Source: Mobula hypostoma
Taxonomy: Eukaryota
Direction: 5' to 3'
DNA: 64,000 nt
Assembly (NCBI RefSeq): GCF_963921235.1
Contig: NC_086097.1
Coordinates: forward strand, 124,870,001-124,934,000
Shown here: in pieces, positions 4,838 through 55,120 of the stretch
How the letters are laid out: each line of letters starts with the position of its first letter
Numbering within the stretch: the first letter of the stretch is position 1
Notes under the pieces: model-generated
Databases searched by the model: none
Told to the model about the DNA's origin: nothing
What the model saw: the letters and a program-made list of their open reading frames with translations, nothing else
Program-made: the position numbers and the translations under genes

Positions 4838-5275
4838 CGAGGGGTGATTGATAAGTTCGTGGCTAAGGTAGAAGGAGATGAGTTATACAGCTCTCGTTAC
4901 ATGCACACGCAGTTCAACTCTTTGAGTGATTATGCAGAAAGTTTGAAATTAATAACTCATCTCCTTCTACCTTAGGCCACGAACTTATCACCCCGATGAG
5001 TTATTAACTTCAAACTTTCTGCATAATCACTCAAAGAGTTGAACTGTATATGCATGTAATGAGAGCTGTATAACTCATCTCCTTCTACCTTAGGCCATGA
5101 ACTTATCAATTACCCCTGCTGTGGACACTTTCTGGAGGTCCAAGATCCATATACTCCACGACCGCTGGACTAAGTGTGTAAATGTAGGAGGGGACTATGT
5201 TGAAACATATATGTGCTAGGTTTTCTAAAATTGACTCCTTCTATCTTAGGCCACGAACTTATCAATCACCCCTCG
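4838..5275 (+). mobile_element. Mariner-derived MITE with internal palindrome
   Basis: TA TSD; TIR CGAGGGGTGATTGATAAGTTCGTGGC; transposase C-terminal remnant LHDRWTKCVNVGGDYVE starting at 5154. Confidence 0.9.
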
Positions 5276-6816: not shown

Positions 6817-7534
6817 CACTCAATGGCCTCTTTATTAAGTACACCTGTACACCTGCTCATTAATGCTAAAGTCTAATCAGCCAATCATATGGCAGCAACT
6901 CAATGCAGAAAAGCATGCAGACATGGTCAAGAGGTTCACACAAATACTGGAGAAATTCAGCAAGTGAGGCAGCATCTACGGAAAAGAGTAAATAGTCAAG
7001 GTTTCGGGCCGAGACCCGAGCTAATGTAAAGAGGTTCAGTGTTGTTCAGGCCACATATCAGAATGGGAAGAAATGTGGTCTAAGTGATTTTAAATATGGA
7101 ATGATCATTGGTACCAGACGGGGTAGTTAGAGTATCTTAGAAACCGCTGATCTTCTGGGATTTTCATTCACAACAACCTCTAGAGTTTACAGAGAATGGT
7201 GTGAAAAATCAAACAAAAACATCCAGTGAGCGGCAGTTTCCAGCATCTGCAGAATTCCTGTTGTTTGCAGTGAGCGGCAGTTCTGTGGGTGAAAACACCT
7301 TGTTAACGAGAGAGGTCGGAGGAGAATGGCCAGACTGGTTCAAGCTGACAGGAAGCTGACAGTAACTCAAATAACCACACGTTACAACAGCGGTGTGCAG
7401 AACAGCATCTCTGAAGCACAACATGTTGAACACTGAAGTGGATGGGCTACAGCAGCAGAAGACCATGAACATGCATACATTCAGTGGCCAGATTTTTAGG
7501 TACATAAGGTACCTAGTAAAGTGGGTGCTGAGTG
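6817..7534 (+). mobile_element. Tc1-like non-autonomous element (family A)
   Basis: TIR consensus CACTCAGTGGCCACTTTATTAGGTAC; degenerate transposase N-terminus; two Penelope-derived inserts. Confidence 0.85.
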
Positions 7535-9067: not shown

Positions 9068-9475
9068 CATACAGACATGGTCAAGAGGTTCAGTCGCTGT
9101 TCAGACCAAACCTCAAAATGGGGAAGGAATCTGATCTACGTGACTTTGACCATGGAATAATTGTTGATGCCAGATGGGGTGGTTTGAGTATTCTAGAAAC
9201 TGCTGATCTCCTGGGACTTTCACGCACAACAGTCTCTAGAGATTACAGAGAATGGTTTGGAAAACAAAAATCATCCAGTGAGCAGCTGTTTGTGGGCAAA
9301 AATGCCTTGTTAATGAGAGAGGTTAAAAGAGAATGGCCAGACCTGTTCAAGCTGACAGAATGGGACAGTAACTCAAGTAACCATGCATGAGAAGGGTAGT
9401 GTTAGGAGGAAAGTCAATGAATGCAGAATATGTCGAACTTGAAGTTGATGGGCTACACCAACAGAATACCACAAA
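9068..9475 (+). mobile_element. Tc1-like fragment (family A)
   Basis: ORF 9064-9390 contains MGKESDLRDFDHGIIVDARWGGLSILETADLLGLSRTTVSRDYREW (Tc1 paired-like HTH). Confidence 0.85.
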
Positions 9476-13825: not shown

Positions 13826-14209
13826 TCAGCTTCAAACAACTCTGTGGTGTGGGACTTGAGACAGGGAATTGAATTTGTAGTGGAAACCAAAGTCAATGGC
13901 TTAATTGCCCAATGTGTGGTTGTAAGGAAGTTCTATACATTCAACCTGGGTGGAACAATACCCAGGAAGAAACAACACAACACTGGCACCAGCCCACCTA
14001 GCATCAAGAGCATGTATACAGAACAGTGCCAGCAGTATTCCAAAGGATCACACCAACCCTGCTTATGGACTGTTTGTCCCACTCCCAACAGGGAGGAGGC
14101 TACGTAGCATCAATGCCAGGACCACCAGTCTCAAAAACAGCTACTTCCCCCAAGCTATCAACACCTCCACCCATTAACCCACTTCACCACCCCCACCAGC
14201 ACTACATAC

Positions 14210-15593: not shown

Positions 15594-16334
15594 GTGTGTT
15601 TTTCATGCTGCATCATAACAATCATTTTGTTCTCCTTTACAAATTTGTGCTGAAGAATGACAATAAACAATCCTGGATCTTAGCTGTAGAAATGGTATCT
15701 GGGAGATTGAATTTGGTCAGTACAGTTACAAGTCAGCTTTGGCCATGTCTCATCAAATAAGACCAGAGAGAAAGGCAAGAAATGAGACAGAATCAAAAGA
15801 AAGATGCAATTTCAAGAGGCACCAGCAAGTATAACCAAATGTTTGACTAAAGTGAAAGCGAGGGTAAGGTAGCAACAAAGGCAACAGAATGAATATCCTC
15901 ACTCTTGATCAGATCAAAAAAAAATCCAAGAGTTTGCCATGTTATTGAAGGTGTGGATAAAAGGAGGAAACGTTTTGAAAGGGTCCCTGGTGGAAAGATC
16001 AGTGTTATTGCATACCTGGAAAAACTTTGAATAACAAACAGTTTTAGTAACGGAAAGGGGGACCCAACAATGCTCAACACAGCTCAGCCAAATATGACAA
16101 TGGATAGCTAAACTAGTTTTTCAAGATTGTTCAACGTTCAGGACCCTGCACATGAGATAACTGAGATGAAAGCTATAGGGAACATGTGGGACAGCATAGT
16201 GATTTAGAATCACATTCTAGTTAATCCCTCCTCATAAAATATCTTTCACCTTTAGAAATACTTGCTGAACCTCTATGCACCCCTTCTAAAGCATCTGTAT
16301 CGCTTGTCCTCCAACATCAGAATTCCCATTAGAG

Positions 16335-16614
16335 AACATTGGACAATCCAACACAATACATGCCCTTCGCCCCATCATGTTGTGCCAATGAACATTGAAC
16401 AATACGACACAAAACATGCCATTCGCCCCATCATGTTGTGCTAATGAACATTGAACAATACGTCACAAAACATGCCCTTCGCCCCATCATGTTGTGCCAA
16501 TGAACATTGAACAATACATCACAGTACAGGCCCCTCATTCCATCATGTTGTGCCAATGAACATTGAACAATACATCACAGTACAGGCCCCTCACCCCATC
16601 ATGTTATGCCAACC
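16335..16614 (-). repeat. 56-bp tandem repeat, 5 copies, derived from a CR1/SINE 3' tail
   Basis: Units start at 16335, 16391, 16447, 16503 and 16559; the reverse complement resembles the GGCACAACATxxTGGGCCGAAGGGCCTGTACTGTG tail. Confidence 0.85.
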
Positions 16615-24834: not shown

Positions 24835-24969
24835 CCTACAGACAGAACAGGTGTAGACAAGAGCAGCTTTTGCAGCGGTCTTCTGATCATGTCCGGTTCG
24901 TTTTTTCTGTTCAGCTTGCTTCTTTGCATTCCGCTGCTGGGACTGAAACTTCTGATGCCCACGGGCCAT
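24835..24969 (-). CDS. ZNF706: ZNF706-like, coding exon 1 (codons 1-45; 4F5/SERF-like basic N-terminus plus first half of C2H2 finger)
   Basis: Translates MARGHQKFQSQQRNAKKQAEQKKRTGHDQKTAAKAALVYTCSVCR. Acceptor TAG at 24974-24972 followed by GT-ATG; phase-0 donor AGG|GTAAGG after 24835. Confidence 0.96.
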
Positions 24970-25029
24970 ACCTAAGTAGATAATAAAATAATCAATGCAG
25001 TCGTATGATTAGCTGTTTGTGGGCATATA

Positions 25030-25582
25030 AATTCAATGGCTACATTATTAGGTACACCTGCTCGTTAATACAAATATCTAATCAGCCAATCATGTGACAG
25101 AAATTCAATGCATAAAAGCATGCAGGCATGGTCAAGAGGTTCAGTTGTTCTGACCAAGCATCTGAATGGGGTAAGGAACTCAATCTAAGAGACTTTGACT
25201 GTGGAATAATTGTTTGTGACAAATGGGGTGGTTTGAGCATCTCAGAAACTGCTGATCACTGGGGACTTTCACACAAAAGTCTCCAAAGTTTATAGAGAAC
25301 GGTGCAATAAACAAAAAAAAAAATCAAGTGAGCTGAAGCTTTGTGGGTGGAAACACCTTCTAAATGAGAGAGGTCAGAGGAGAATGGTCAGACTAGTTCA
25401 AGTTGTCAGAAAGACGAAAGCAACTCAAATAATCACGCATTACAACAGTGGTGTGCAGTAGAGCATCTCCACACATGTTGAACTTTGAAGTGGATGGGCT
25501 ACAACAGTAGAAGACCACATACATACACTCAGTAGCCACTTTATTGAGTATAGAAGGAACCTAATAAAGTGGCCACTGAGTG
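25030..25582 (+). mobile_element. Tc1-like non-autonomous element (family A)
   Basis: Similar to 6817-7534; right end CTAATAAAGTGGCCACTGAGTG|TA; lies ~60 nt from the acceptor of ZNF706 coding exon 1. Confidence 0.85.
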
Positions 25583-26337: not shown

Positions 26338-27366
26338 TAGTGGTCTCCAGTTAATTTGGATACATCAGGCCCTGTACATTTTGGCCAAATTAAGTGGCTG
26401 CCCCAATTAGCCAAAGTTACATTGAAATAGTTAAAAAGGTATAAAAAAGACAAACTACTGTTTAAGTAAGTGAAATATAGAATAAATTAGAACACCAATA
26501 TTACTACAGTACTACAAAATTGTATTAGTTTCTAATAGTTATTGACAGAGGAATTCACCCAGTGTACACTACCACATTCTTTTGATTGACTGTAAATGAA
26601 CAAAATCAACACAGACACCTGGGGCAGATAATGAACTGCCTTCATATAATGCTTTCGACGATTGCATCTGCTAAATCTTCGTTTCCATTGAGACATTCAA
26701 CATAACTTGTTGATACCTTCAGATTCTTTGTACTTCCTAACATGTAGTGAAAATGTTTCTAGTATTTCCAAGATAAGAAAATCTGCAGATGCTGGAAATC
26801 CAAGCAACAGCCAAAATGCTGCAGGAACTCAGCAAGCCAGGCAGCATCTATGGAAAAGAGTAAACAGTCTATGTTTCGGGCTGAGACCCTTCATCAGGAC
26901 AGTTCTAATGAAGGAACTTGGCCCGAAACATCGACTGTTACTCTTTTCCTTAGATGTTATGTGGCCTATGAGTTCAACCAGTATTTTGTGTGCTTTCTAA
27001 CAAACATCTCCAAGCCTGAATACTTGAAACTACAGTGAGCAAAGCAGTTCTGAATTATCTTGTGCTTATTTCTCGCCAACTATCAGTGACAAAAATCACT
27101 GCTTTTTGAACAGAAACACATTTAACTGATGCTATTTAAAAACTGTTCACTCTAAGCACAGCGCAGTGTCTAGCGTCATTCACATGCACTTGATGGCCAT
27201 TGGTTAGAAACTGTTCGGCAACAGTCTGCTGTTCCAACTGAGTGGCATACAGTCCCAAATAAACAAAGGGAATTCCAGCTATTTTCTTGATTAGTTTTTG
27301 TTCTTTAAGAGTGGTCAAAAGGAGCTGCCCTGATTAACCAATGGTCCAGTTAACCAGAGTCCACTG
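26338..27366. mobile_element. Tigger/pogo-like non-autonomous DNA transposon
   Basis: Imperfect TIRs (TAGTGGTCTCCAGTTAATT / CAGTTAACCAGAGTCCACTG) flanked by TA; hosts a Penelope hairpin. Confidence 0.65.
26770..26993 (-). mobile_element. Older Penelope-derived palindromic element
   Basis: Diverged inverted repeat centred on CTTCATCAGGACAGTTCTAATGAAGG. Confidence 0.75.
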
Positions 27367-27995
27367 TATATAAAATCTCCAAAGTAGCCAGACTGATGAA
27401 AAAGTGTACTTGGGACAGCAAAGAAATTTACCAAATTTGAGTTTTGATCTTTATTCCATTACTCCACCTTATTTGTTTGTTTTCCCAAGAGGTCAGGGCA
27501 TTGTAACATAGGAGGAAAAAAAATCTGAGGTATGTTGAGAGGAAAAAATAGATTGAAACAGTTAACAATTGTTCCTCAAAACTACAAACTCTAGATTTTG
27601 TCTAAATGCAATTGTCAGTCATACTTAACTGCCCCAATCACTTCACGATAAGGTGTGACTTCACCCATTTACTAATACCAATTTCAACTGCTTTGACTGA
27701 GTACCAGTTTGGTTTAATCACTGCAGCACAAGATATTTTTCCCAAGTTAGAAAAAACAAATACATGCCCAAGAAGTGCCAGGTGAGCTGTCTCAATGACT
27801 ATCACACAGTCGCACTCACAATTACTGCAATGAAGTGTTCCGTGAGATTGGTTATGACTAGAATCAGCTCTTGCAAGGACCTGCAGTCACTAATTCACCC
27901 TCTACCACAACAGGTCTACAGAAGACTCAATCTCATTGGCTTGCCACTCTGCTTTGGAGTACCTAGAAATAGCAAAATGCATGTCGTTTATCAAT

Positions 27996-28220
27996 GCAAA
28001 CACGAGGAATTCTGCAGATGCTAGAAATTCAAGCAACACACCTCAAGGTTGCTGGTGAACGCAGCAGGCCAGGCAGCATCTCTAGGAAGAGGTACAGTCA
28101 ACGTTTCAGACCGAGACCCTCCGTCCTGACAAAGGGTCTCGGCCTGAAACGTCGACTGTACCTCTTCCTAGAGATGCTGCCTGGCCTGCTGCGTTCACCA
28201 GCAACTTTGATGTGTGTTGC
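27996..28220 (-). mobile_element. Penelope-derived palindromic element
   Basis: Near-perfect inverted repeat; 14-bp TSD TGTCGTTTATCAAT (27982-27995 and 28221-28234); inserted in a Rex1/Babar RT remnant. Confidence 0.85.
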
Positions 28221-31200
28221 TGTCGTTTATCAATTGCACTTTGGTGTACAATACCAACACTCCTTTTGTATTAATCACCACACTTCAAAACCTGGCTCTC
28301 TATACCTTGCTCTGAAACTGGATCCTCAACTTCATCAGGAGACTACAGTCCGTTGAGGATTGGTAATAATATCTTCATCTCGCTGACAATCAACACAGGC
28401 ACATATCAAGGACGTTGCTTATCCTGCTATTCCACTCTTATGACTATTTGGCTAAGCACTGCTCCAACAACATCTATAAATTTGCCAATGACACTACTGT
28501 TGGTAAAATCTCAGACAGCAACGAGGATACGTAGAGCATTGAGGTAGGTCGGCTGATTGAGTGACAACACAACAACAACCTTTCTCTCTCAGTATGTCAG
28601 CGAGACCAAGGAATTGATTATGGACTTCAGGAAGGGGAAGCTGGGAGAACACACACCGATCCTCATTGAGCAGTCAGTAGTGAGGAGGGTGGGCAGTTTA
28701 AATTCCTGAGTGTAAATATCTCTGAAGACCTATCTTAGTCACAACATATTTATGCAATCATATAGAAGGCACCCCAGCAACTCATACTTTGTTAGGAACT
28801 TTGAGGAGATTTGTACCCCTTATCTATGAAAAGATGTGCTGGCATTGGAGAGAGCCCAGAGGAGGTTCACAAGAATGACTCTGGGAATGAAAGGGTTAGT
28901 GCATGGGGAGCATCTGATAGCTCTGGGCTTATCCTCACTGGAGTTTAGAAGAATTAAGAGAAATTTTTCATTGGGCTGCAATCATCACAAGAAGGTGTTT
29001 GTTCATGAGGTAAAGTGAGGTTTAAAAAGGGCTTGGGGCCTTTTGGAACTTTTTGGCATACAACAATCACAAAATCTCTTAGGCACTCAGCAGTAACCAA
29101 TGAAAAGAAGTGAAGTGTAAGTGGTGTGCTCATTGTTGGAGTGGACAGTGTTGGAGTGCCAGGCTTTGGATCGGAAAGCTTAAGCGAGAACAGGCACAGG
29201 CTAGAATTTAAGCTTGAAAAAGTAACAGGTATAACAAGTGTAGGCAGGATGGCAGTTAGTTAAGGCAGTTGAACGTTCCTCCTGTGAGATGTGCGATTTC
29301 AGGGTACCTAACAGTTTCCCTGAGCACTATATCTGCAAGAAGTGCATCCAATTTCAGGTCCCAACAAGGTCAAGGAACTGGAGCTGGATGCATTCAAATT
29401 GTTCACGAAGCTGAAAAACTCAGATTAGACTTTTACTGAGGTGGTCACACCCAGAGTTGAGGCTTCAGTTAATAGATAGATGACCACTAGGAGAGGCAAG
29501 GGGTGTAAGCAGTCAGTGCAGGGTTTACTGCTGGGGGAGGCTCCAATGCACAGGATTATAGGAGGATCCTGAGGGTTGTAGACTGACCCAGTTCCACCAT
29601 GGTCACAACTCTACCTAGCAGAGGGCATCTTCAAGGGGCACTGCCTCAAGAAGGTGGCATCCATTATTATTAAGGAGCCTCATCATCAAAGCCATGCTCT
29701 CACTATTCTCACTATTACCATCAGGAAGGGGGTACAGGAGCCTAAAGATCCACACTCAACAATTGAGAAAGTTTGTTCCCCTCTATCAAATTTCTGAATA
29801 GTCCATGAACATTCCCTCATTATTCCTTTTTTTTTGCATGGATTTAAATTCTATAGTAGTTTTGTCTTTGCACAGTACTGTTGCTACAAAACAACAAATT
29901 TCACATAATACTGACAATAAACCCATCTCTGGAATTATTATTAATGTTACACATGCTGAGAGAAAAACTTTGCTTTGCACATCATTCATGCAGATCATTT
30001 TAAGATACAAGTACACTGCAGTAGATTGTGAGATCAAAAGGTTGTTGCTGTCGTACAAGCAGTCCATTCAAGAGTCTGGTAACAGTGGTGTAGAAGTTAT
30101 CTTTGAGCCAGTTGGGGTACATTTAAGTTTCTAATCTTCTGCCCAATGAATGGGGCAGGAGAGAGAATGACTGGGGTGGGGCTCATTTGATTACACTACC
30201 TTCCTGAGGCAGCATGAAGTGTAGACAGGGTAGACGGTGGGGAGGCTGCTTTTTGTGTTGCACTGAGCTGTATCCACAATTGTAATTTCTTGCAGTCTTG
30301 GGTAGAGCTGTACAGGCTGCAATGCATCTGGAGAGGATGCCTTCATGGTGAGGGTCAATGGGGACATGCCAAATTTTGAGGATTAATTGGAAGCCTTCTG
30401 AGGAAGTAGAGGAACTGATGCGCATTCTTGCTCAGAGTCTGTGGTTGGACCAGGACAAACTAAAAGTGATATTAGAATCTCAACCCTCACTTCAGCAAAG
30501 ATTAAAGAGATTAAAAGATCAACTTTGTCACATCTATATCAAAACCTACTATGAAATGTACTGTTTGTGTCAAATCAGATCAGTGTGGATTGTGCTTGGC
30601 TGTCCACAATTGTTGCCATGCTTCCAGCGCCAACAGGGCATGCTCACAACTTACTAACCCTAACCTGTATGTCTTTGGAATGTGGGAGAACCTGGAAACT
30701 CAGAGTCACGGGGAGAATGTACAAGCACCTTACAGATAGCAATGAGAACTGAACCTCATTCATTGATCGCTAGCTGGCACTAACCACTATGCTACATGCC
30801 ATCATTTTGTCAATGATCTCTGCCTTCCGAGAGGTGACAGTGATCCATATATTCCAGTATTTTATTGTGGGGGGGCGGGGGGAAGAATCTGGATTGTCGG
30901 GTCGGTGACAAGAGCAGATTTTACAATACCTTTGTCTTTCAGATGTTTAGTACAAGGCCCACCCTTTAGGAAAATTCAACCGATGAGCCAGTGACAAATA
31001 GATGAATATGGCTCACTCCACTTCCTGAAATCACTGACAAGCTCTTCTGTTTTGCTGATATTGAGGGAAACATTTAGTTTCTTGGAAACCAAAAATAATC
31101 AAAAGTATGCCGGAAAAGCTCATTATTTGAAATAGTTGAACTTAAGTGTTGGATCCAGGAGGCACTAATATATCTAGCTGGAAGTTGAAGAGTTGTTTCT

Positions 31201-31367
31201 CAGTTAGACTGAAATGACAAAAGCTAAAGCCACAGATAAAGTCACAGTGGAGATTTAAAGCAACAAGTAACTAAGCACAAAGTAATCCTTGCAACTGGTC
31301 AGAGATGCTCTGCAACATTGTCACCCAATCTGTTGTTGACCAGTAAAAAAAACAGTACTTCATTTGT

Positions 31368-31601
31368 AAACAACAGGAATTCTGCAGATGCTGGAAATTC
31401 AAGCAACACACATCAAAGTTGCTGGTGAACGCAGCAGGCCAGGCAGCATCTATAGGAAGAGGCGCAGTCGACGTTTCAGGCCGAGACCCTTCGTCAGGAC
31501 TAACCTGACGAAGGGTCTCGGCCTGAAACGTCGACTGCGCCTCTTCCTATAGATGCTGCCTGGCCTGCTGCGTTCACCAGCAACTTTGATGTGTGTTGCT
31601 T
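31368..31601 (-). mobile_element. Penelope-derived palindromic element with hammerhead motif
   Basis: Perfect 98-bp inverted repeat (31401-31498 / 31504-31601); 13-bp direct repeat CTTCATTTGTAAA (31358-31370 and 31599-31611); CTGACGA...GAAACGTC core. Confidence 0.85.
31465..31502 (-). ncRNA. Minimal type-I hammerhead ribozyme motif (Penelope-type, predicted dimeric)
   Basis: UAGUC-CUGACGA-AGG-GUCUCGG-CCU-GAA-ACGU-C/GACUG: stem I, intact core, stem II and a palindromic ACGU in place of stem III. Confidence 0.7.
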
Positions 31602-32723
31602 CATTTGTAAAGTTGATTTGCAAGTCCATGCAATGGGAAGGCAGGAGGTAAAATAAGAGCAACACATCTTGTACCTTGCAATACACACTGTGGAAAAGAA
31701 GAATAGCTTTTGTGGAGATAGAGAAGTGAACTAGAGTATACTGCAAGAACAGATCTTCAGAACACTGAGGGAAGAGGGTTAAGTATGCTTACTAGTAGCA
31801 TTAGTAGGAAAAGCGATTTGTCAGTTTTAGAGGGCATTGGGATAGAAGGCCACCTTCTCTTCTTAGGCAGTCAATTATGATCAAGGGTTATTTACTTTCC
31901 CAGTTTTAAGAGTTTGAAGGTGGCAGAGGAAGAAAATTGGAAAATCACCATCTTTTCCTCAGTTGGAGAGATTGCACCCAATAGGGTAGTCCAGGAGCTT
32001 GATGGTGTCCTTCAGTCACCCATTTTACATCAACACATAGATTCTAGTTTATCTGCACCAAAGAAAATATTTTATTTTGAGCAGTCAAGGGCTAGTGATT
32101 CTTAGGAATCAAGTGAGGATATTCCATTTCAAGAAGGCTTTGAGTACATTGCTGAATATTTAAATCTGTAGTGGTCATTCTAAGCACCACGATAGGAAGT
32201 GGGGAAAAATGAGTCAAGGGGTCCATTGTGCTGAGTGAAGCTTCTAAGCAAGAGAAGCTTCAAAAACATAGACAGCAGAACAAATTATTTGAGTTAATAC
32301 CTCAAATAATACTTCAAGGAGCCAATGACATGGAGAACAGGGAATGAGGATTTTGCTTAGAGTCTGCTCACTTAGGAGTCAAAATAAAGGATCTCAAAAT
32401 GCAAATCTTTCACCAAAATGTCTACCTGGGGGTCTTGCATCAAAGTTATTCCAGCCCAGCAAATTAAGTTGTTTTGTAAGCTCCAAGCAATTAGTGCAAA
32501 TTCTGGCTACACCAGGTGTTCCTTTACTACACACATGTATTTGCACATCTACATACAGTCTCTCCCTTCGTAATAATGTAGATCTAGGCCAGTTTTATAG
32601 TTGTGCACTGTGAAATGCAGTGGTACACAAAATATTGATTATGTACAACCTGATGAAGGGTCTTGGGCCAAAATGCCAACTGTTTATTTCCCCTCCATAG
32701 GTGCCTCCTGACTTGCAGAGTTA

Positions 32724-33223
32724 AGGCTGATTTATACTTCTGCATTAACTCGACGCAGTAGCCTACGCAAGTGACTTACGTACGTTGTGAGCATTTATAC
32801 TTGTGCGTTGGTGTGACTGCGTCGCTCTACAATTCGCGCACGTCACGCATGCGCACACACCTGCCCATGCAAGGCTTCATGGTCAAGGTAGTCTTTCTCG
32901 GGGTAAACAAGAAGCGAGCGTCTTTTTTCGTAAAAGTGAAATGTGTTCTCCATAATTTCGGAGGTCTGTAAAGCTTTATGGAAAGCATTGCAGCCAGAGT
33001 TCCTTCCCTGCTCTTCAGTCACCGAATGGGAAGCTATTGCAGCGTAGGGGGAAATGCAATGCTACCAAGTGGACCAATCACAGCTGCTGCGGTCTGCTTT
33101 GCCACGACGCGTAGCTACATTTTGGGAGAGATGTGCGTCAGGCTACGGCGTAGGGATCTGCATCGGCTCTGCGGTGATGCAGTACTTACGGCGTTGAGTT
33201 GACACAGAAGAATGAATCAGGCT
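32724..33223. mobile_element. PIF/Harbinger-type MITE
   Basis: ~33-bp imperfect TIRs starting AGGCTGATTTATACTTCTG; 3-bp TTA TSD (32721-32723 and 33224-33226); CpG-rich; splits a Penelope end fragment. Confidence 0.75.
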
Positions 33224-33449
33224 TTAGTCCAGCATTTTATGTGTTGCTCAAGGTTTGCAGCATCTGTAGAATCTTTTGTCTATAGTTATGTATAACTAAA
33301 ATAGGAGCAAAATTAGGTCATTCCGCCCATCAAGTCTGCTTCGTTATTTGATCATAGCTCATTTTGTCAGCAGCTAGGGACTGGGGCGTGAACACACGTG
33401 ACACATTGTCCACTCAGGTAGGCAGAATCATGCGTTATATCTCGCATAT

Positions 33450-33955
33450 ACAATCAGGGGCCAATTTTATTAGGTACATCTGCTCATAAATGCAAATATT
33501 TCAGCTATTATAGCAGCAACATAATGCATAAAAGTAGGCAGACATGCTCAAGAGGTTCAGTTGTTTTATAGATCAAACATCAAAATGGGGAAGAATGGGA
33601 TCTAAGTGACGTCATACAAGGTGTTTGAGTGTCTTGGAAACTACTGATTTCCTGCTATTTTCACGTACTAACATTCGCTAGAGCTTACAGAGAATGGTGC
33701 AATAAACAAAATAACATCCAGCGAGCAGCAGTTCTGTGGGTGAAAATGCCTTGTTAATGAGAGAGGTCAGAGAAGAATGGGCAGACTGTTTCAAGCTTAC
33801 AGGAAATCGACTGTATCGCAAATAACCATGCATCACACCAATGGTGTGCAGAAGAGCATGCTTGTACGCACATATCGAACCTTGAAGTGGGTGGGCTACA
33901 GCAGCAGGAAAGCACAAACGTACACTCAGTTGCCACTTTATTAGATACCTCCTGT
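33450..33955 (+). mobile_element. Tc1-like non-autonomous element (family A)
   Basis: Same TIR and internal sequence as the other copies. Confidence 0.8.
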
Positions 33956-36454
33956 AGATTCTGACCATTCTCAAAAGGCCACTTGAAAAGATCCCAAACA
34001 AGGGTCATTATACAAGTCAAGGCCACATGGAACCAGGAGTAAATTAGAGATTGAAATCAGATTGACTGCAAGCACGCCATATGGGATAATGATTCCTTTT
34101 TTAAAATGGATAAATGACAGCTACTTCAGATGTGCTACAAGGATCAACATTGGGGCCTCCAATATTGAAAATATTATTGACTGAGAATTAGCCATATCTT
34201 ATTAAATGGCAAAGCAGGTTTGCGACATTTAGAGTCAGAGTCATAGAGTACTCTAGCACAGAAGCAGGGTCTTCTACCCTTCTAGTCCATGACAAACTGT
34301 TATTCTGCCTCGTCCCAACAACCTTCACCTCGGCCATATCTCTCCCACCCATGTACTTAACCAATATGTTACAATCAAACCTGCATCCACTCGTTCTGCT
34401 GGCAGCTCGTTCCACACTTGCAGCACACTCTGAATGAAGATGCTCCCCCTCAGGATCCCCTTAAATATTTCACCTTTCAATAGTTCCATTTAATAGAGAA
34501 GGTATACAATATACGACCTGAAATTCTTGCTCTTCGCAGACATCCATGAAAGCAGAGTACCCCGAAGAATGAATGACAGTAAAAACGTTAGAACCCCAAA
34601 GCCCTCCCCACACACAAGCAGCAGCATCAACCCTCCCCCTCCCCCACTTACTACAGCAAAAAGCATCACCCACCAAGCAAGCAACATCAAAGCCCTCCAA
34701 GAGATCATGATCTGCAGTACAACAAAAACTCATTGTTCCCCCGACAATTCAGCATGCCACAGGCTCTCTCCCTTCCCAAGGGGAAGAGAGGTGTCGACAG
34801 CAAGAAGGAAGACAAACAAAACACCGATGAGTGGATGATTGCAATGATAAAGTTTCACCCTTAACCATGACCTCTAGTTCTAGATTCGTCCGCCTTAATG
34901 GAAAAAGCCTGTTTACATTAACCCTATCTATACATCTCATAATTTTGAACAATTCTGTCAAATCTTTCTTCATTCTCTTACATTCCAGGGAACAAGGTCT
35001 TAACCTGTTCAACATTTCCATACAACTCAGGTCCTCCACGACCCAGCAAAATCCTCGTAAATTTTCGCAGGCCTTCTTCAATCTTATTGATATCCTTCTT
35101 GTAGGTAGGCGACAAAAACTGCATACAATACTCTAAATTTGGCCTCACCAATGTCTTATGCATCTTCAACATAATGTCCTAACTCCCGTACTCAATACTT
35201 TGAATTAAGGAAAAAGTGCCAAAAACCTTTCTTAACAACCCCATCTACTTGTAACGGATCCACTTACACAGGGATGTATTGAGGCTAAGGTCTTGAAGCT
35301 TATTGATTAGCTTTGAGGGGATGATGGTATTGAATGCCGAGCTGTAGTTGATAAAGAGCATCCTGATGCAAGTTTCTTTGCTGTCCAGGTGTTCCAGGGT
35401 TGAGTGACGTGTCAATGAGATGTCATCTGCTGTGGACCTGTTGCTCCGTTACGCAAACTGGAGCGGATCCAAGTCACTTCTTAGGGAGGAGTTGATATGT
35501 TTCATCACCAACCTCTCAAAACACTTAATCACTGGATGCAAGTCCTACTGGATGATAGTTATTGAAGCAGGTTACCATGTGCTTCTTGGACAGCAGCAGG
35601 TGAAGCCTGCTTGAAGCAGGTATGTGGAGGTAAACCTACAGTAACAGGGCAAAATCTTGGTGAACACTCCAGCCAGTTGATCAGCACGTGTCTTTATTAC
35701 TTAGCCAGGTACCCCATCTCCAGGTTCAGGAAGTTATTTCCCTACAACCATCAGGCTCCTGAGCTGGTGTGGATAAGTTCACTCACCTTAACTCTGAACT
35801 GATTCTACAACCTATGGACTCATTTTCAAAGACTCTACAACTCATGTTCTCAGCACTATTTTTTATTTGCACAGTTCCACTTTTTTCACATTGGTTGTAG
35901 TTGCCTATTTTTATGTATAGTTTTTCATAAATTCTATTGAATTTCTTTATCTTTCTGTAAATGCTTGCAAGAAAATGAATCTCAAGGTAGCATATGGTCT
36001 ATGTACTTTGATAATAAATTTACTTTGACTCATTATCCAAAAATCTATTGATCTGTCTTGAATACAGTATCTGAAATCATGACATTGGAATGAGGAAATT
36101 AAAGATTCATAACTTTGAGCAAGATATTTCTACACTTTAGTCTGCATTACTGAAATGTTCATTTTAATAGGTTGACCTGGCTACAAAACTCCAAATCAAT
36201 TGTGGAAGAATAGCAAGCACGTGAACCTTGATTATTAATTGTAATCTGAACACTTTGGTGTAGAGGACAGTACTCTTTGAGTTCTTTCTCAAGCGAGATA
36301 GAGCAGCTAGTTGAGTGGTGTTGGAACAATTTTATAGTTTTTTTTTATTATGTATTGCAATGTACTGCTGCAAAATAATGAATTTCACAAAATAGAACAG
36401 TGATATTAAAACTGAATCTGATTTATTAAATGCCCATCAAAAATACAGTGAAGT

Positions 36455-36570
36455 GCACAAACACGAGGAAATCTGCAGATGCTGGAATTTCACGAAGGGT
36501 CTCGGCCGGAAACGTCAACTGTACCTCTTCCTATAGATGCTGCCTGGCCCGCAGCAACTTTTGTGTGTGT
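36455..36570. mobile_element. Collapsed Penelope-derived palindrome
   Basis: 9-bp TSD CAGTGAAGT (36446-36454 and 36571-36579); short left-arm stub joined to a right arm. Confidence 0.75.
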
Positions 36571-37829
36571 CAGTGAAGTCCATTTGTATTAATAACCGAC
36601 ACAACCAGGGATGTGCTGAGGACAGTCCACAAGTGTCGCCACACATTCTGTTACCAACAAAGTATGCCCATCATACTTGGCAGAACACAGAAAACAAGCC
36701 CCGTTCCTCCTTGCCACCCACGCACATACTCAGTCCCAGTCCTCTAACCCCAGGACAGGCCATCTTCAGCCTCCAGCAGACTTGCGGATTCACAGACATT
36801 GGGCTTTCGACATCCCCAGTGGATTCAGAGGATATTATGGTATAGTAACAGTCAAAAATCAGATGAGAGTTTTTCCTCCCAAACATGCTCAGAAATAATT
36901 TACTGCGCCTGGTGGGGGAAGGGAAGAGAAAACAGTGCAGACCACCATTTTCCTTAAGCAATAGGAAATTACTACAATTGGAAGGTCAAAATAGCCTCAG
37001 CAAAACAGTGACTCAGCCAAATAGGGTAGTAATTTATTGATGACTAGCTCAGAATGCATGAGAATGCGAAGTTGGAATAGCAAATTCAACAGCAAACCAA
37101 AGTAAGAAAGCCAAATAAGGCAAAAAAGGGATAGAACTGAGACAGGGAAAGAATAAAAATCAATAATTATTGATGCATTCCTCTGGCCTTTGTTAACTGC
37201 AGTCCCAAAGATATCACTCAGTAGAAACCATGACCTATTGCCGCATTATGAAGACAGAAGCCCCTTCTCCAAAAACAAACAAATAAAATTAATGAAACCA
37301 TGAGTCAGACCGGAAACATGCCATTTTTGGGAAGATAGCAGCATCTCATATCAAGATGCAATGTGTTAAAACTTTAATTAGACATCTGGCTTTGCTTGAA
37401 GTTACTATTATTTGCATTTAAAATGACAGCAAATGGGGTGGAACTTGCTGCATGAAGCCAGTTAGTTCTGCACAAGCTGTCTTGTCAGGAAACTTGGAAC
37501 TGATTTAAAGGTTTATAAATTGTTGAAGTGTTTTCAGTAATTAAATTGAATAATTTCTAAAATTATAAATCAATTAAACTTTTAGCAAAGCCTGGGCTTA
37601 AACGCTTGTCGATATGAGCTGTTGTGTGGGTGGGTAGGAGTCATCGTACACCGTTCACACACCTTTGTGCACAACCATGCTAATACAGATGACAACACTA
37701 TTTTGGATCGGGATGGCATCAGGCACTAAAATGGCATTTGTGGACCCAGCAACATTAAAGCTGATGGTTGATTTGTACATCCGTGATGAGTGTAGAGGAC
37801 TCATTGCCAGCAAAAAGCTCTGACTGGAG

Positions 37830-38736: not shown

Positions 38737-39574
38737 TGTTACGTACCCCGTAACTGGGTTGCCAAACCAGCAGAAATGGATCACTCAGTTGGAGTCTGGA
38801 GTACTAGAACTAAGAAAGTTTTATTAAAGAAATAAGCAACACAGTAATCGAAAGGATAATAAATGCAACAGTTCAGCAATGATAACCACTCATGTGCACA
38901 GAATTAAGATAACAGCATCAATCAAGCTCTATCGTTGTCTAGGGGTAAATGACCAAATTTCAAAGTGACTCAAAGTTCAGTTCGCAGTAATCGTTGCCAT
39001 GGCGATGGACAACGTGGGGGAAGAGAGAGATAGAACAGGAACAACTGATCATTCAGAACGGCTTCACTCACAGACCAGCAAGATGGCTCACAAGCAGCTT
39101 TTGGGCGGGTCCTTGGTGATGTCACCTGAGGTCACCGACTGTGGCCCCTCCAGATGCGGTCGATCCTCTGCAGTGAACCCGGCACCCAAGCGAGGGCGGA
39201 CATACACCGGGTTCCCGCTGATCGTACCTTTCCACCCTGGCCGTTGTCTGGTACTTCTCACCCACTCGTGAGAGGCGCACCGCTTCCAGGGTCTCATTAC
39301 CTCGGGTGGCGTGTGTGTTGCCTTAGCGAACCTGTCCCTTTTTATCTCCCTGCTGGGGTATCGCCTGTCCATACTTCAAACAGTTCAAGGTTCAAAGGGG
39401 GGAGCCGCTTCAGACAGCTCTCTCTCCCCCGTCCCTTCATTACACATCTCCAGACGCTGCTCCATTGTTCCTTATCTCTCCTTCCCCTGAGGGCAGGTGG
39501 CAGACCACTTGCTGATGTCACTGATGCTAACCCAGGCCAGCAAACATCTTAATTTTATGTGTATTCTCGTCACA
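38737..39574 (-). repeat. 3' LTR (838 bp)
   Basis: Direct repeat of 42720-43560; adjacent to the PPT; minus-strand AATAAA near 38820-38825. Confidence 0.97.
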
Positions 39575-39586
39575 CTTCCCCCCTTT
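39575..39586 (-). promoter_or_regulatory. Polypurine tract
   Basis: Minus strand AAAGGGGGGAAG directly abutting the 3' LTR. Confidence 0.9.
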
Positions 39587-39747
39587 AAGGATTTTTACCA
39601 GGAGGTAAAAATTACAAACATGAATACATTATTTGATACACACACAAATATACATCTTTAACAGCTATTTGGCTAACACAGCGAGTTTGAAGCTGTCAAC
39701 AACTTGACAGACAGTCATCACATTTTCTGTTCCTTTTACACGTGTTA

Positions 39748-40407
39748 TTAATAATCCCTTAGACCAGGCTCCAACTCAGCAAACTTCATAGTGGCCAAAA
39801 ACACTGATGAATTGCGATCAATGTAACCTCTCATTTGGCTTTTTCCCGGACCACAATAACAAGGGTCGTCCCATTCCGACTCAGTTTTCTCTCGCAAGGG
39901 CTTAGTAGGAGGGGGATGGGTATGGACCGCAGAGTTATTGCAAAACTTCCTGCAGTACCCCACCATCTCCAAGAGCCTTCTGAGGGCCCTCTTGTCTGTC
40001 GGGGTTGGGAGGTCAGCGATAGCCTGCACTGTAGCTTGCATCGCTGCCAGCTGCCCCTGTGTCACCACAATTCCCAGGTAAGTGACCTTCGTGTGGCCGA
40101 ATTCATTTTTTTCAAGGTTCACTATCAAACTGGCTTCAGACAGCCGTATTAAATTGCCAATACACACCTCTGTGTTCATCAGCCCTTTAGTCACTGAATT
40201 ACTCATTAAATATAGATGTTGTTTACTAGGTTTACCTATTGTAACAGACATCACCCGACGTCCCAGTTCTTTGCATTTCCTCGGGACAATCAAACACACG
40301 GGCGCGAGTTGTTTAATTAAAGATTCGCTTTGTTCGGGGATTAAGGGAGAGACCTTATCAGTAGACCTGGCCAAAACAATAGCCTTCTCCCATTTGACCG
40401 ATCCCAT
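39748..40407 (-). pseudogene. Decayed reverse transcriptase remnant (palm end and thumb)
   Basis: RLSEASLIVNLEKNEFGHTKVTYLG...LPTPTDKRALRRLLEMVGYCRKF resembles the Gypsy RT thumb. The catalytic YxDD position reads CIGN. No RNase H. Confidence 0.8.
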
Positions 40408-40417
40408 CCTAATCTTT

Positions 40418-42238
40418 TCAAAATGGTTTTTTTCCTCTTATCAGGGGACCCCTAGCTTCATTGATTTCCACGCTAACACCGACTAGGTTTGTTAGCATAT
40501 CAAAAGCCGGTGACCGTCTCAGTTTGCGTCGGTCATGATCAATAACATTTTTCCCCCTGGGCAGCCGGTAAATCTCTTTCATGATTCCACCAACTGTTTC
40601 CTCCAGCACCGCAAAATGTCCACCGGGGGGTACCTCGTGGGCCATGTTAAAAACCTCATCCCCATAACTCTTTTGCACCACCCCCCATTCCTCATCTGCG
40701 GGTACTGTACTTGATTTCCCTTTCTTCTTTAGCACTTCCTCCTCCGCACAATAGCTTGTCAAGGCTGTGTCAGAGAGAGCGGTCTCTGCAAAAACCATCA
40801 GCCCCTCGTCTCGCTCCTGCGTCTGCACAAATTCTTTCCTGGCTACTGCTACGTCCGTCCCAGCTCCCTCACTACCTCTTATCTCACTACACCCTGTCTC
40901 ATACAATGTTGGCAGAAATGTTTTAGCTAAATTCACTATCGCGGGCCCGTGATGAACCTGTGAGTCCATGGGTGGGGCCTCAATGCTGGCAGGCTGACCT
41001 GTCAATCTCACGACTGGGAACACGATTCCTCCGGCTATGTCATTACCGAGCAAGACTTCCATGTCTTTCATCGGTAATTCGGACCTCACCCCGATCGTGA
41101 CTAGTCCAGAGACCAGGTTGCTCTGTAAGTGTATCTGGTGCAAAGGGACTGACTCTGTCCCTTCCCCAACACCTTTGACCTCTACCTCCCCAGTCTGGGT
41201 CTCTGAGCTAAACTCTAATACACTCTTCAGTATTAGTGACTGACACACTCCCGTGTCTCTCCAGATCCGCACTGGAACTGGTTTTAACCTCTCCTTCACT
41301 GACACCAGTCCGGCCGAGATAAACCTCTCGCGTCCTTCCTGGACTTTTTCAGACCTGTCCTTCCCTAGCGGTTCGCTTAACAGCTCGATACAGCCATTCA
41401 AAATTTCCGCTTTTCCTTTCCCCGTCTCCTTCCTTGGGGAAGAGCACCTGGACGCAAAGTGTCCGGCTTTCCCACAATTATAACAGACGACCCCAGGAGA
41501 CTTCCTACCAGACTGCTCCCGGTCTACCTTATCCTTTTCACTAGTCCCCGGCTTACTTTCTGACTTTTCCGGCGGACTCTCCCCGCCGTCCTGACGACCC
41601 TTTTGGTAGCCTTTACTCGGGGCAAACTTCATTTTATGCGTCAACGCATACTCATCCGCTAACTTAGCAGTTGCGGCTAATGTGGCTGCCTCTTTCTCAT
41701 CGAGGTAGGGTCTCATACCCTCAGGGACACAACCTTTAAACTGCTCAATCAGGATCAGTTGTAGCAGTCTGTCATAATCCCCCTCTACCCCCTTCGAGGC
41801 GCACCAACGCTCACAATATGTCTGCATCTCACGGGCAAACTCCAAATACATGCGGTCCCACTGCTTCCTCGCATTCCGGAACCTCTGCCGGTATGCCTCC
41901 GGGACCAACTCATAAATCCTGAGGATGGCCTCTTTCACCACCTCATACTTCTGGGCATCTTCCGCGGATAAAGCGGAGTAAGCTTCTTGGGCCTTCCCTT
42001 TCAGTACACTCTGAAGTAAAACAACCCACTTATCCCTCGGCCAGTCCTGACTTATAGCCACTTTTTCGAAATGGAGAAAGTACCGATCCACGTCGGTATC
42101 GTCAAATGGCGGAACCAGCCTAACCTCCTGGGTCGCCCGGAACCCTCCACCTTGGTTCGGCACGAGCCCCTGCTCGGCCCTTATCCTTAACTTTTTCAAC
42201 TCGAATTCCCTTTCCCTCTGTTTCTCCTCTCTCTCCAA
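40418..42238 (-). CDS. Gag capsid (SCAN-like) - CCHC knuckle - aspartic protease - decayed integrase N-terminus
   Basis: VPPFDDTDVDRYFLHFEKVA; LILIEQF...LADEY (SCAN-like capsid C-terminal domain); CYNCGKAGHFASRC; protease RDTG and LLGND; AHEVPPGGH resembling the integrase HH motif. Confidence 0.85.
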   Translation of the reverse strand: MEREEKQREREFELKKLRIRAEQGLVPNQGGGFRATQEVRLVPPFDDTDVDRYFLHFEKVAISQDWPRDKWVVLLQSVLKGKAQEAYSALSAEDAQKYEVVKEAILRIYELVPEAYRQRFRNARKQWDRMYLEFAREMQTYCERWCASKGVEGDYDRLLQLILIEQFKGCVPEGMRPYLDEKEAATLAATAKLADEYALTHKMKFAPSKGYQKGRQDGGESPPEKSESKPGTSEKDKVDREQSGRKSPGVVCYNCGKAGHFASRCSSPRKETGKGKAEILNGCIELLSEPLGKDRSEKVQEGRERFISAGLVSVKERLKPVPVRIWRDTGVCQSLILKSVLEFSSETQTGEVEVKGVGEGTESVPLHQIHLQSNLVSGLVTIGVRSELPMKDMEVLLGNDIAGGIVFPVVRLTGQPASIEAPPMDSQVHHGPAIVNLAKTFLPTLYETGCSEIRGSEGAGTDVAVARKEFVQTQERDEGLMVFAETALSDTALTSYCAEEEVLKKKGKSSTVPADEEWGVVQKSYGDEVFNMAHEVPPGGHFAVLEETVGGIMKEIYRLPRGKNVIDHDRRKLRRSPAFDMLTNLVGVSVEINEARGPLIRGKKPF

Positions 42239-42621
42239 CTGTCTCTCTCTCTCTCTCTCTCTTTCCTTTCCATCTCTTTCTCTTTCTCCCGCCTTTCTAA
42301 CTCTCTCTCCTGCCTTTCTAACTGCTTCTCTTCGTGTTCTAACTGCCGTACCCGGAACTCGTGCTCGAGTCTCAGTTTTTCAAGCTGTACCTGTACCGCG
42401 TCTCCAGCAGGTTTTTCAATAGACACCACCCCCAGCTCACCTTGGGGAAACACACCTTTAGATACATAGTGCTCTACAATAGCTCTGTGTATCTCCTCTC
42501 TCCTCATTGTCGACTTCACCTTAGCAAGATTCAACCGTTTGGCCACAGCTACCAATTCCGATTTCCTGGCATCCTCTAATGCCTCCAAGGTCGGCGCCTT
42601 TATAAATTCCTCAGCCTCCAT
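42196..42621 (-). CDS. Gag N-terminal part (frameshifted in an AG microsatellite)
   Basis: ATG ~77 nt after the PBS; E/R/K-rich coiled coil; overlaps the next ORF in another frame at the (AG)n run near 42242-42262. Confidence 0.75.
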   Translation of the reverse strand: MEAEEFIKAPTLEALEDARKSELVAVAKRLNLAKVKSTMRREEIHRAIVEHYVSKGVFPQGELGVVSIEKPAGDAVQVQLEKLRLEHEFRVRQLEHEEKQLERQERELERREKEKEMERKERERERDSWRERRNRGKGNSS

Positions 42622-42697
42622 TTCTGCTGTTTGTCTTTTCTTTCTTTCGGGAATTTTAACCCAATCAATTTACTCCGTCCCAAATTTAGCGTTCAAA

Positions 42698-42715
42698 ATC
42701 CCAGACGAGCCCCCA
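42698..42715 (-). promoter_or_regulatory. Primer-binding site, tRNA-Pro
   Basis: Minus strand TGGGGGCTCGTCTGGGAT, 4 nt inside the 5' LTR; 17/18 match to the canonical tRNA-Pro PBS TGGGGGCTCGTCCGGGAT. Confidence 0.92.
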
Positions 42716-42719
42716 CTTA

Positions 42720-43560
42720 TGTTACGTACCCCGTAACTGGGTTGCCAAACCAGCAGAAATGGATCACTCAGTTGGAGTCTGGAGTACTAGAACTAAGAAA
42801 GTTTTATTAAAGAAATAAGCAACACAGTAATCGAAAGGATAATAAATGCAACAGTTCAGCAATGATAACCACTCATGTGCACAGAATTAAGATAACAGCA
42901 TCAATCAAGCTCTATCGTTGACTAGGGGTAAATGACCAAATTTCAAAGTGACTCAAAGTTCAGTTCGCAGTAATCGTTGCCATGGCGATGGACAACGTGG
43001 GGGAAGAGAGAGATAGAACAGGAACAACTGATCATTCAGAACGGCTTCACTCACAGACCAGCGAGATAGCTCACAAGCAGCTTTTGGGCGGGTCCTTGGT
43101 GATGTCACCTGAGGTCACCGACTGTGACCCCTCCTCCAGATGCGGTCGATCCTCTGCAGTGAACCCGGCACCCAAGCGAGGGCGGACACACACCGGGTTC
43201 CCGCTGATCGTACCTTTCCACCCTGGCCGTTGTCTGGTACTTCTCACCCACTCGTGAGAGGCGCACCGCTTCCAGGGTCTCGTTACCTCGGGTGGCGTGT
43301 GTGTTGCCTTAGCGAACCTGTCCCTTTTTATCCCCCTGCTGGGGTATCGCCTGTCCATACTTCAAACAGTTCAAGGTTCAAAGGGGGGAGCCGCTCCAGA
43401 CAGCTCTCTCTCCCCCGTCCCTTCATTACACATCTCCAGACGCTGCTCCATTGTTCCTTATCTCTCCTTCCCCTGAGGGCAGGTGGCAGACCATTTGCTG
43501 ATGTCACTGATGCTAACCCAGGCCAGCAAACATCTTAATTTTATGTGTATTCTCGTCACA
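42720..43560 (-). repeat. 5' LTR (841 bp)
   Basis: Direct repeat of 38737-39574 with about 9 substitutions and one 3-bp indel by manual comparison; adjacent to the PBS. Confidence 0.97.
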
Positions 43561-45593: not shown

Positions 45594-47335
45594 GACAGCT
45601 ATGTGTGGAGCCAAAAGAGACGGGGAAGATTCTGAACAATTTCTTTTCTTCTGTATTCACTAAGGAGAAGGATATTGAATTGTGCAAGATAAGGGAAACA
45701 GGTAGGGAAGTTATGAAAACTATGATGATTAAAGATGAGGAAGTACTGGAGCTTTTAAGGAATATAAAAGTGGATAAGTCTCCGGGTCCTGACAGGATAT
45801 TCCCTAGGACCTTGAGAGAAGATAGTATAGAAATAGCGGGGCTCTGACAGAAAAATTTCCAATGTCATTAGAAACAGGGATGGTGCCGGAAGATTGGCGT
45901 ATTGCTCATGTTATTCCATTGTTTAAAAAAGGTTCTAACAGTAAATCTAGAGATTATCAGTCTGTGAGTTTGACGTCAGTGGTGGGTAAATTGATGGAAA
46001 GTATTCTTAGAGATGGTATATAGAATTATCTAGATAGACAGGGTTTGATTAGGAACAGTCAACATGCACCTGTGCGTGGAAGGTCATGTTTGACAAATCT
46101 TATTGAATTTTTTTTGAAGAGGTTACTAGGAAAGTTGACAAGGGTAAAGTGGTGGATGTTGTCTATATGGACTTCAATAAGGCCTCTGACAAGGTCCCAC
46201 ACGGAAGGTTGGTTAGGAAAGTTCAATTGTTAGGTAATAATATTGAACTAATAAAATAGATTCAGCAGTGGCTGGATGGGAGACGCTGGAGAGTGGTGGT
46301 GGATAACTGTTTGTCAGATTGGAGGCTGGTGACTAGTGGTGTGCCTCAGGGATCTGTACTGGGTCCAATGTTATTTGTCATATACATTAATAATCTGGAT
46401 GAAGGGGTGGTAAATTGGATAAGTATGCAGATGATACTAAGATAGGTAGAGTTGTGGATAATGAAGTAGGTTTTCAAAGCTTGCAGAGAGATTTAGGCCA
46501 GTTAGAAGAGTGGGCTGAAAGATGGCAGATGGAGTTTAACGCTAATAAGTGTGAGGTGCTACATTTTGGTAGGACTAATCAAAATAGGACATACATGATA
46601 AATGGTAGGGCATTGAAGAATGTCGTAGAACAGAAGGATCTAGGAATAATGGTGCATAGTTCCCTGAAGGTGGAATCTCATGTGGATAGGGTGGTGAAGA
46701 AAGATTTTGGTATGCTGGCCTATATAAATCAGAGCATTGAGTATAGGAGTTGGGATGCAATGTTGAAATTGTACAAGGCATTGGTGAGGCCAAATTTGGA
46801 GTATTGTGTAGTTTTGGTCACCGAATTATAGGAAAGATATCAACAAAATAGAGAGAGTACAGAGAAGATTTACTAGAATGTTACCTGGGTTTCATCACCT
46901 AAGTTACAGAGAAAGGTTGAACAAGTTGGGTCTTTATTCTTTGGAATATAGAAGGTTGAGGGGGGACTTGATAGAGGTATTTAAAATTATGAGGGGGATA
47001 GATAGAGTTGATGTGGATAGGCTTTTTCCATGGGGGGGGGGAAATTCAAACAAGAGGACATGAGTTGAGAGTTAAAGGGCAAAAGTTTAGGGGTAACATG
47101 AGGGGGAACTTCTTTTCTCAGAGTGGTAGCTGCGTGGAACGAGCTTCCAGCAGAAGTGGTTGAGGCAGGTTTGATGTTGTCGTTTAAAGTTAAATTGGAC
47201 AGCTATATGGACAGGAAAGGAATGGAGGGTTATGGGCTGAGCGCAGGTTGGTGGGACTAGGTAAGAGTAAGAATTCAACACGGACTAGAAGGGCCGAGAT
47301 GGCCTGTTTCCGTGCTGTAATTGTTATATGGTTAT
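45594..47335 (+). mobile_element. CR1 LINE, 5'-truncated and frameshifted
   Basis: DKSPGPD, GRSCLTNLIEF and KYADD; 5-bp TSD ATTTG (45589-45593 and 47336-47340); close relative of 58000-59392. Confidence 0.95.
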
Positions 47336-55015: not shown

Positions 55016-55120
55016 CAAACAAGGCAGCTCCAGCGAGCTCACGAACACGACCGTGCGGCGAGCGCAGAACAACTCCCCCGCCCGGCGGGAGGAAAACAGA
55101 TGTCCCCGGCTGCCGGCCGG
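55016..55120 (-). other. ZNF706: Probable non-coding exon 1 of the ZNF706-like gene (TSS approximate)
   Basis: Consensus donor TTG|GTGAGT at 55016/55015 at the edge of the main non-repeat CpG island. Coding exon 1 starts only 2 nt before the ATG, so an upstream exon is required. Confidence 0.65.

Follow-up and report, generated by a model that had tools for sequence, protein, structure and literature searches.

A recent 241-bp hairpin insertion near a ZNF706-like gene, most likely a truncated terminus of a Penelope-like retrotransposon

The perfect hairpin at 31358-31611 of the window (the whole 64-kb stretch of DNA analysed here) is very probably a recent 241-bp insertion, most likely a neutral, 5′-truncated stub of a hugely amplified Penelope-like retrotransposon, the hairpin itself likely having been made during insertion. 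The focal element is likely ordinary, showing the usual insertion footprint of Penelope-like elements and being no device for protecting the host gene. While the insertion pattern has been published, what is new here is an empty site in a related organism, which dates the focal copy and removes the need for conversion between its arms.

Sequence data compared

Contigs of four of 24 listed sequencing runs (X1, X5, X9, and X13) were compared over 30800-32200. X1 is from organism A, X5 from the related organism B, and X13 from organism E, and X9 was taken to be RNA by guess only.

Structure of the element and its genomic setting

The two arms are complementary at 98 of 98 positions around a 5-nt loop (31499-31503), and an exact 13-bp direct repeat, of which 10 letters are A or T, flanks the element (Table 1). 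The one-sided extension is 30 nt long (31371-31400), or 33 nt when the AAA common to the extension and the duplication is counted. At the opposite end, the right arm and the right duplication copy overlap by 3 nt, giving an insert of 241 bp. Sequence comparison thus agrees with the anatomy given in an earlier note on this DNA (exact 98-bp arms, 5-nt loop, one-sided extension, and 13-bp duplication). The minus strand of 31340-31630 has a predicted folding energy of -223.9 kcal/mol (z = -29), a value reached by none of 200 shuffled sequences. In total, 156 inverted pairs of at least 25 nt are present in the window, most of them far apart and imperfect. A second, unrelated near-perfect hairpin at 4838-5120, with 99-nt arms that are 95% complementary and 33 nt apart and with repeated terminal motifs, resembles a miniature element of the DNA-transposon type.

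Table 1. Features of the focal element, its relatives, and the host gene in the window
Feature	Position	Strand	Evidence
Insertion of the tail alone (about 29-32 nt) within another repeat; 15-bp duplication	7224..7282	+	Repeat copies 9255-9310, 25290-25360, and 33705-33750 without insertion
First coding exon of ZNF706-like host gene	24886..24971	-	Profile matches
Sibling hairpin of much greater age, with tail; arm identity about 74%, no clear duplication	26776..26995		Window comparison
Older sibling: tail plus two arms (94% complementarity), 14-bp duplication, neither core intact	27982..28234		Window comparison
Target-site duplication, left copy, 13 bp; last 3 nt (AAA) are also the element's tail end	31358..31370	+	Single copy at organism B empty site
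One-sided tail, 30-33 nt, 3′ end of the longer arm	31368..31400	-	251 X1 contigs diverge at 31368; same tail at 7239-7268, 26776, 27998, and 36459
Left arm, 98 bp: element sense sequence on host-gene sense strand	31401..31498	-	Exact arm complementarity
Type I minimal hammerhead with 5-bp stem I; cut predicted at 31470/31469, full sequestration predicted	31465..31502	-	Match to published minimal hammerhead consensus except G.U at 10.1-11.1
5-nt loop and C31504: parent element sequence runs on; 1-nt junction microhomology	31499..31504		224 X1 contigs
Right arm: inverted copy without tail; hammerhead core 31505-31533 with 1 bp of stem I	31504..31601	+	Arm complementarity, motif search
Target-site duplication, right copy; first 3 nt (CTT) are also the arm end	31599..31611	+	Exact repeat; empty site in organism B
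Sibling: inverted tail joined straight to tail-less arm; 9-bp exact duplication	36446..36579		Same form as X9 joint 31390-31505, depth 696

Coding exons resembling ZNF706 are located at 24969 and about 23850 of the minus strand, with profile matches to SERF-like_N (E = 6.7e-08) and zf-met2 (E = 0.003, below its cut-off). A candidate first exon is indicated by a donor-like site (55016) within CpG-rich sequence, one of four donor-like sites matching the pattern. The element would accordingly lie in intron 1, an intron of ~30 kb with the first exon at ~55.0 kb. As for the earlier placement in ZNF706 intron 1, the profile matches uphold a ZNF706-like gene on the minus strand, and the intron number depends on the candidate exon at 55016. 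The presumed intron also holds an LTR retroelement (38737-43500), likely recent, whose direct repeats are 99-100% alike and about 3983 bp apart and which encloses a broken SCAN and zinc-knuckle ORF on the minus strand. The window further contains a tandem array of a 56-bp unit (16278-16613), two LINE reverse transcriptase (RT) copies (45943-47330 and 57998-59396) that are 88-96% alike and about 12 kb apart, and additional RT fragments at 12.5-13.6, 17.4-17.9, and 59.4-60.6 kb.

Empty site and age of the insertion

In organism B, a contig of 1763 nt (X5 record 17; depth 4.7, one contig from one sample) runs through 30800-31357 and directly on through 31599-32200 without a gap (record positions 687/688); the 13-mer is present once and 241 bp are missing. 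The focal element is therefore a recent 241-bp insertion, as the earlier note had supposed, although precise loss in organism B instead of insertion in organism A is formally possible. X1 contigs of organism A span both junctions at equal depth, with no empty allele among those listed. X9 contigs cover parts of the flanks with no differences, the arms in this run being swamped by contigs of other family copies, and both X9 and X13 leave the insertion site unbridged.

Over about 1160 nt of flanking sequence, organism B departs from organism A by 15 substitutions and 10 gap letters (~1.3% diverged). Placing half of this divergence on the focal lineage, and taking the insertion to be no older than the split, one would expect the arms to have accumulated no more than 1.27 differences, with a probability of at least 0.28 of observing none. 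Given this age, identical arms need no conversion. That an old single insertion acquired or homogenised its second arm later, by gene conversion or by replication template switching, is extremely improbable: template switching can reportedly homogenise inverted repeats, but the whole structure sits between two copies of the duplication and is absent in organism B, an empty site that largely refutes the idea, and older sibling hairpins in the same intron have not been homogenised, having decayed to 94% and about 74%. The arm-to-arm conversion entertained in the earlier note is thus superfluous.

At 31463 and its mirror position, both arms have C; at this site, T accounts for 66, 98, and 97% of the summed depth in X1, X5, and X13, respectively; the C variant makes up about a third of the summed depth in organism A versus 2-3% in organisms B and E. 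Since both arms carry this variant enriched in organism A, both were copied from one young subfamily.

Family size and variation among copies

The element is not unique: it belongs to a very large family with 10 loci in the window alone. A search with nhmmer gave 20 matches in the window, 14 of them at E < 0.01 and at these 10 loci (four inverted copies, five single arms, and one tail alone), against none at this level in five shuffles. The contigs aligning to the element number 86,666 in X1, 49,443 in X5, 7,390 in X9, and 13,828 in X13. Summed depth in X1, which is not equivalent to copy number, is 3.7-10.4 million over the element versus 14.8 on the flanks.

Among the X1 contigs, 251 from other copies leave the reference at 31368, the tail end, and enter unrelated flanks. 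A further 224 continue behind 31504 into one common upstream sequence, 30 letters of which were seen, and for this reason the loop is assigned to the parent sequence, with one C shared at the junction. All 15 joints shown (the best 15 of 561) lead from the left arm into the right arm at varying places, with 0-5 shared letters, marking head-to-head junctions of other family copies. Contig ends and window copies together place two fixed 3′ ends in the family, about 30 nt apart; unpaired copies at 13.8 and 6.9 kb end at the tail-less site. The hairpins in the window have three different apices. Duplications of 9, 13, 14, and 15 bp were found at four family loci and one of 10 bp at a fifth (6.9 kb, within another repeat), while a search for a clear duplication at the 26.8-, 33.2-, and 48.3-kb copies found none. 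The arms form a decay series, from 98/98 in the focal copy through 88 identities and 8 mismatches at 28.0 kb to 74 identities, 18 mismatches, and 8 gaps at 26.8 kb. The tail-only insertion at 7224-7282 likely derives from the same young source as the focal element, given their shared tail variant.

Several other copies have been altered or extend differently. In an older copy at 588-756, stem II of the hammerhead is broken by the insertion of a different, very common ~70-nt repeat. The copy at 13640-13826, which adjoins a LINE RT fragment on the opposite strand, is the only one that on visual inspection extends past the hammerhead in the upstream direction, by about 85 nt of pyrimidine-rich sequence. 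A CpG-rich element of ~500 bp with imperfect inverted ends (32727-33225) follows the 32.6-kb family copy and precedes a tail-bearing remnant (33225-33283), and may have split one family copy in two.

The long perfect inverted repeat, small size, and very high copy number would also suit a non-autonomous palindromic element, either MITE-like or a hairpin SINE, moving as a fixed 228-bp unit. This is nonetheless very unlikely: the junction varies between copies (561 joints; three apices in the window), the tail makes the ends asymmetric, the duplications (9, 13, 14, and 15 bp) have no constant length, and many contigs (224 in X1) extend into a longer parent. A MITE identity was rejected on the same grounds, i.e. 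a one-sided tail and a variable duplication and apex in place of symmetric ends, a fixed duplication, or a fixed unit.

The hammerhead motif

In standard hammerhead position numbering, the minus-strand motif consists of a 5-bp stem I, CUGACGA, one extra A following A9, a 4-bp stem II with a tetraloop, GAAA, and the palindromic ACGU (15.2-16.2), with a predicted cut after C. All core boxes, the extra nucleotide, the palindromic positions, and stems I and II of the published consensus are thereby present. Pair 10.1-11.1 is G.U, as against G-C in the consensus (>80%), and by eye an alternative A-U register is possible; some listed natural minimal hammerheads likewise have U at that place of the pair (PMC4209133).

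A minimal-hammerhead descriptor matched three times in 64 kb, whereas 20 block shuffles gave 0.05 matches on average; of the three, the palindromic core is confined to the two focal matches. The plus-strand copy retains 1 bp of stem I, leaving the minus-strand motif, on the host sense strand, as the only one in 64 kb with an intact core, palindromic ACGU, and full stem I. The descriptor search hence confirms the earlier assignment of a complete core with stem I to the minus strand only, and it found no second intact sense-strand motif within the presumed intron. Rfam covariance models gave no hammerhead match, whether at the gathering threshold or with E relaxed to 10, which is unsurprising given that the motif has no helix III. 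Matches to Rfam miRNA-precursor models were rejected as generic hairpins far under thresholds (mir-3926, 51/82 bits; mir-1253, 39/103 bits) and one Rfam sRNA match as chance. Among the top contig joints, one falls at 31469, the predicted cut position, but it was discounted as a sign of cleavage, four letters being common to both sides.

Relationship to Penelope-like elements

The focal element is most likely a Penelope-type terminal piece with a minimal hammerhead, an assignment based on the RNA motif and the insertion anatomy. Three features of EN+ Penelope-like elements are present: an inverted 5′-truncated terminal copy, the optional 30-40 bp tail at one end (here 30-33 nt), and a duplication of variable length at an AT-rich target (13 bp by the empty site; 9, 14, and 15 bp in siblings). 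Passages on rotifer Penelopes describe an inverted pLTR, an optional 31-bp tail, and 8-10 bp duplications, an arrangement called typical of flies and fish as well (PMC3846280), and Penelope-like elements are elsewhere described with a 30-40 bp tail and an inverted 5′-truncated copy (PMC8557442). The focal insertion shares with these published units the head-to-head terminal copy, one-sided tail, target-site duplication, junction microhomology, and strong 5′ truncation, but differs in having arms of only ~100 nt without an ORF and a 13-bp duplication, as opposed to the 8-10 bp of rotifers.

Minimal hammerheads in the pLTRs of Penelope-like elements are reported mostly as dispersed truncated pieces, sometimes as opposite-strand pairs, 100-700 bp apart (PMC4209133). 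The focal motif has in common with those of metazoans CUGANGA, one extra nucleotide, a G-started stem II, GAAA, the palindromic core, and a short stem I, and likewise occurs in genome-wide copies, some paired on opposite strands; it differs in its 4-bp stem II with G.U at 10.1-11.1. The part of the PMC4209133 alignment covered includes no cartilaginous fish, and the two files searched gave no matches for shark, Callorhinchus, or Leucoraja. Non-LTR retrozymes are similarly non-coding, hammerhead-bearing, and related to Penelope-like elements, and are reported from the single cartilaginous fish sampled (bioRxiv 10.64898/2026.07.22.740005). These, however, are head-to-tail tandems able to form a dimeric ribozyme, which the head-to-head focal element cannot do, and a retrozyme identity was rejected because only a head-to-head pair, and no head-to-tail tandem, is present.

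Searches for coding sequence linked no GIY-YIG or Penelope-type RT sequence to the family: there was no GIY-YIG match among 107 open segments of at least 88 aa in the window, nor any motif match, and four contig scans found no longer relatives of the terminus in viral_contigs or metagenome_contigs. The earlier Penelope reading stands for the published features (inverted pLTR, tail, target-site duplication, and minimal hammerhead), the link to an ORF lying outside this outcome.

Origin of the inverted copy

We lean towards two-ended priming as the source of the second arm. The endonuclease of the element would nick both target strands 13 bp apart, and the left target 3′ end (AAA) would prime reverse transcription of the element RNA from its tail end, while the right target 3′ end (AAG, bottom strand) would use a second start site lying 30 nt inward. 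Each cDNA would stop at the 5′ edge of the hammerhead, and the two would be joined head to head, either via the 1-nt microhomology or via a slipped 4-nt CTGA/TCAG pairing offered by the parent. Such priming and joining would yield identical arms, a one-sided tail, and the target-site duplication in one step. On each strand, the sequence adjoining the duplication is the cDNA-sense arm, and the target 3′ ends share 3 nt with the element (AAA with the tail and CTT with the tail-less end). Two independent primings would account for the 7.2-kb insertion of a tail alone, for the 36.5-kb copy, and for the X9 joint 31390-31505, at which a tail lies next to an arm for which it could not have been the template; these asymmetric copies could instead be later deletions.

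Priming of cDNA by both target 3′ ends, resulting in an inversion inside one target-site duplication, is known as twin priming in L1. There, the two cDNAs cover different parts of the RNA, whereas those of the focal element would cover the same 98 nt. A literature search for 'Penelope' with 'twin priming' returned nothing on topic by title or abstract start, older subscription reviews being outside its scope.

The closest biochemical parallel is the Poseidon element PAc of Anolis (PMC11167929). According to the passages drawn on here, the anole Penelope protein, predicted to dimerise, cuts and extends both target strands in vitro and starts reverse transcription at two sites bounding the tail. 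The focal element would have in common with PAc two RT start sites that bound the tail, tens of nt downstream of the hammerhead, and the cutting and extension of both strands of an AT-rich target; a staggered two-strand nick at the focal target is postulated by analogy. PAc primes without need for homology, whereas the focal insertion shares 3 nt with the target at both ends, and a search of the focal terminus for an ORF start found none. The same passages of PMC11167929 do not tie PAc to inverted insertions.

Fold-back is the main competitor of two-ended priming and is considered possible, though with less confidence. One tail-primed cDNA would loop back through a small inverted repeat located at the hammerhead's 5′ edge and use itself as template, with its end resolved 30 nt short of the tail; the difference from two-ended priming is one of mechanism only. 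The tail-less arm is wholly nested within the tail-bearing arm, so that the focal copy taken alone fits fold-back equally well, and the parent continuation in loose contig ends offers the 4-nt CTGA/TCAG pairing at the apex. For Penelope palindromes, passages of PMC3846280 favour self-priming on an antisense template, and endonuclease resolution has been proposed for the tail (PMC8557442). However, the observed junction has one C more than a 4-nt fold-back predicts, unpaired copies (13.8 and 6.9 kb) also terminate at the tail-less site, and tail-only and tail-plus-opposite-arm insertions need a later deletion. Any route other than two-ended priming or fold-back is unlikely.

Sequestration of the hammerhead

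The predicted pair probabilities of the hammerhead stems are 0.55-0.98 for the motif alone, 0.32-0.77 in the arm with its tail, and 0.00 in the element, the last value applying also at the moment when transcription completes the motif. These predictions support the earlier proposal that the hairpin sequesters the ribozyme. Its extension, that sequestration protects the transcript, was not supported. Whichever strand is read, a head-to-head insertion places the antisense arm ahead of the motif, and sequestration is thus a matter of geometry and not of adaptation. Protection is also not needed, since the minimal hammerheads of published work failed to cleave as monomers or in the absence of the element's protein: a single minimal hammerhead showed no cleavage in vitro and dimers showed only low cleavage (PMC4209133), and the anole hammerhead was cleaved only with the element's protein, its activity being unnecessary for insertion, and no RNA-seq reads ended at its cut site (PMC11167929). 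The hammerhead in the intron would likely be inactive even if free, and it is predicted to be a passenger, locked in the hairpin whichever strand is transcribed.

It is accordingly quite improbable that the hairpin matters by caging an otherwise active ribozyme, so that the insertion is tolerated in pre-mRNA. The uniqueness of the intact sense-strand motif in the 64 kb and the loss of predicted stem pairing from the isolated motif to the element would be in keeping with it, as would the orientation of copies in the presumed intron, where all three sense-strand motif-bearing arms lie in hairpins and all three unpaired arms are antisense. The latter arrangement is a faint hint of caging; it would arise by chance in 1 of 8 cases and is not significant, and those unpaired copies have broken cores. 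Against caging also stand the cleavage results cited above, the single intact sense motif of the presumed intron, and the head-to-head geometry that produces sequestration on either strand; the intact state of the focal copy follows from its being the youngest. In all four inverted copies of the presumed intron (26776-36570), the tail-bearing arm is on the host sense strand, which is likewise not significant.

In its general form the idea is a ribozyme safety catch, whereby, in a genome rich in Penelope hammerheads and with active element protein, free sense motifs cut pre-mRNAs and are purged from introns while head-to-head copies are tolerated. This has little probability. If it were true, the survival of copies within genes would depend on insertion geometry, and young perfect hairpins would enter ADAR or small-RNA pathways; for ADAR, a perfect duplex of 98 bp within a pre-mRNA would be a plausible substrate.

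Significance

The focal copy alone matters little, as one dated example of a published insertion pattern. It is a clean natural record, comprising a filled and an empty site, an exact target-site duplication, and 3-nt priming matches at both ends, and this record bears on the way in which inverted copies with a one-sided tail are produced by Penelope-like elements. Young copies are so numerous in this genome that they could discriminate two-ended priming from fold-back, and the same genome could test selection against free minimal hammerheads in introns.
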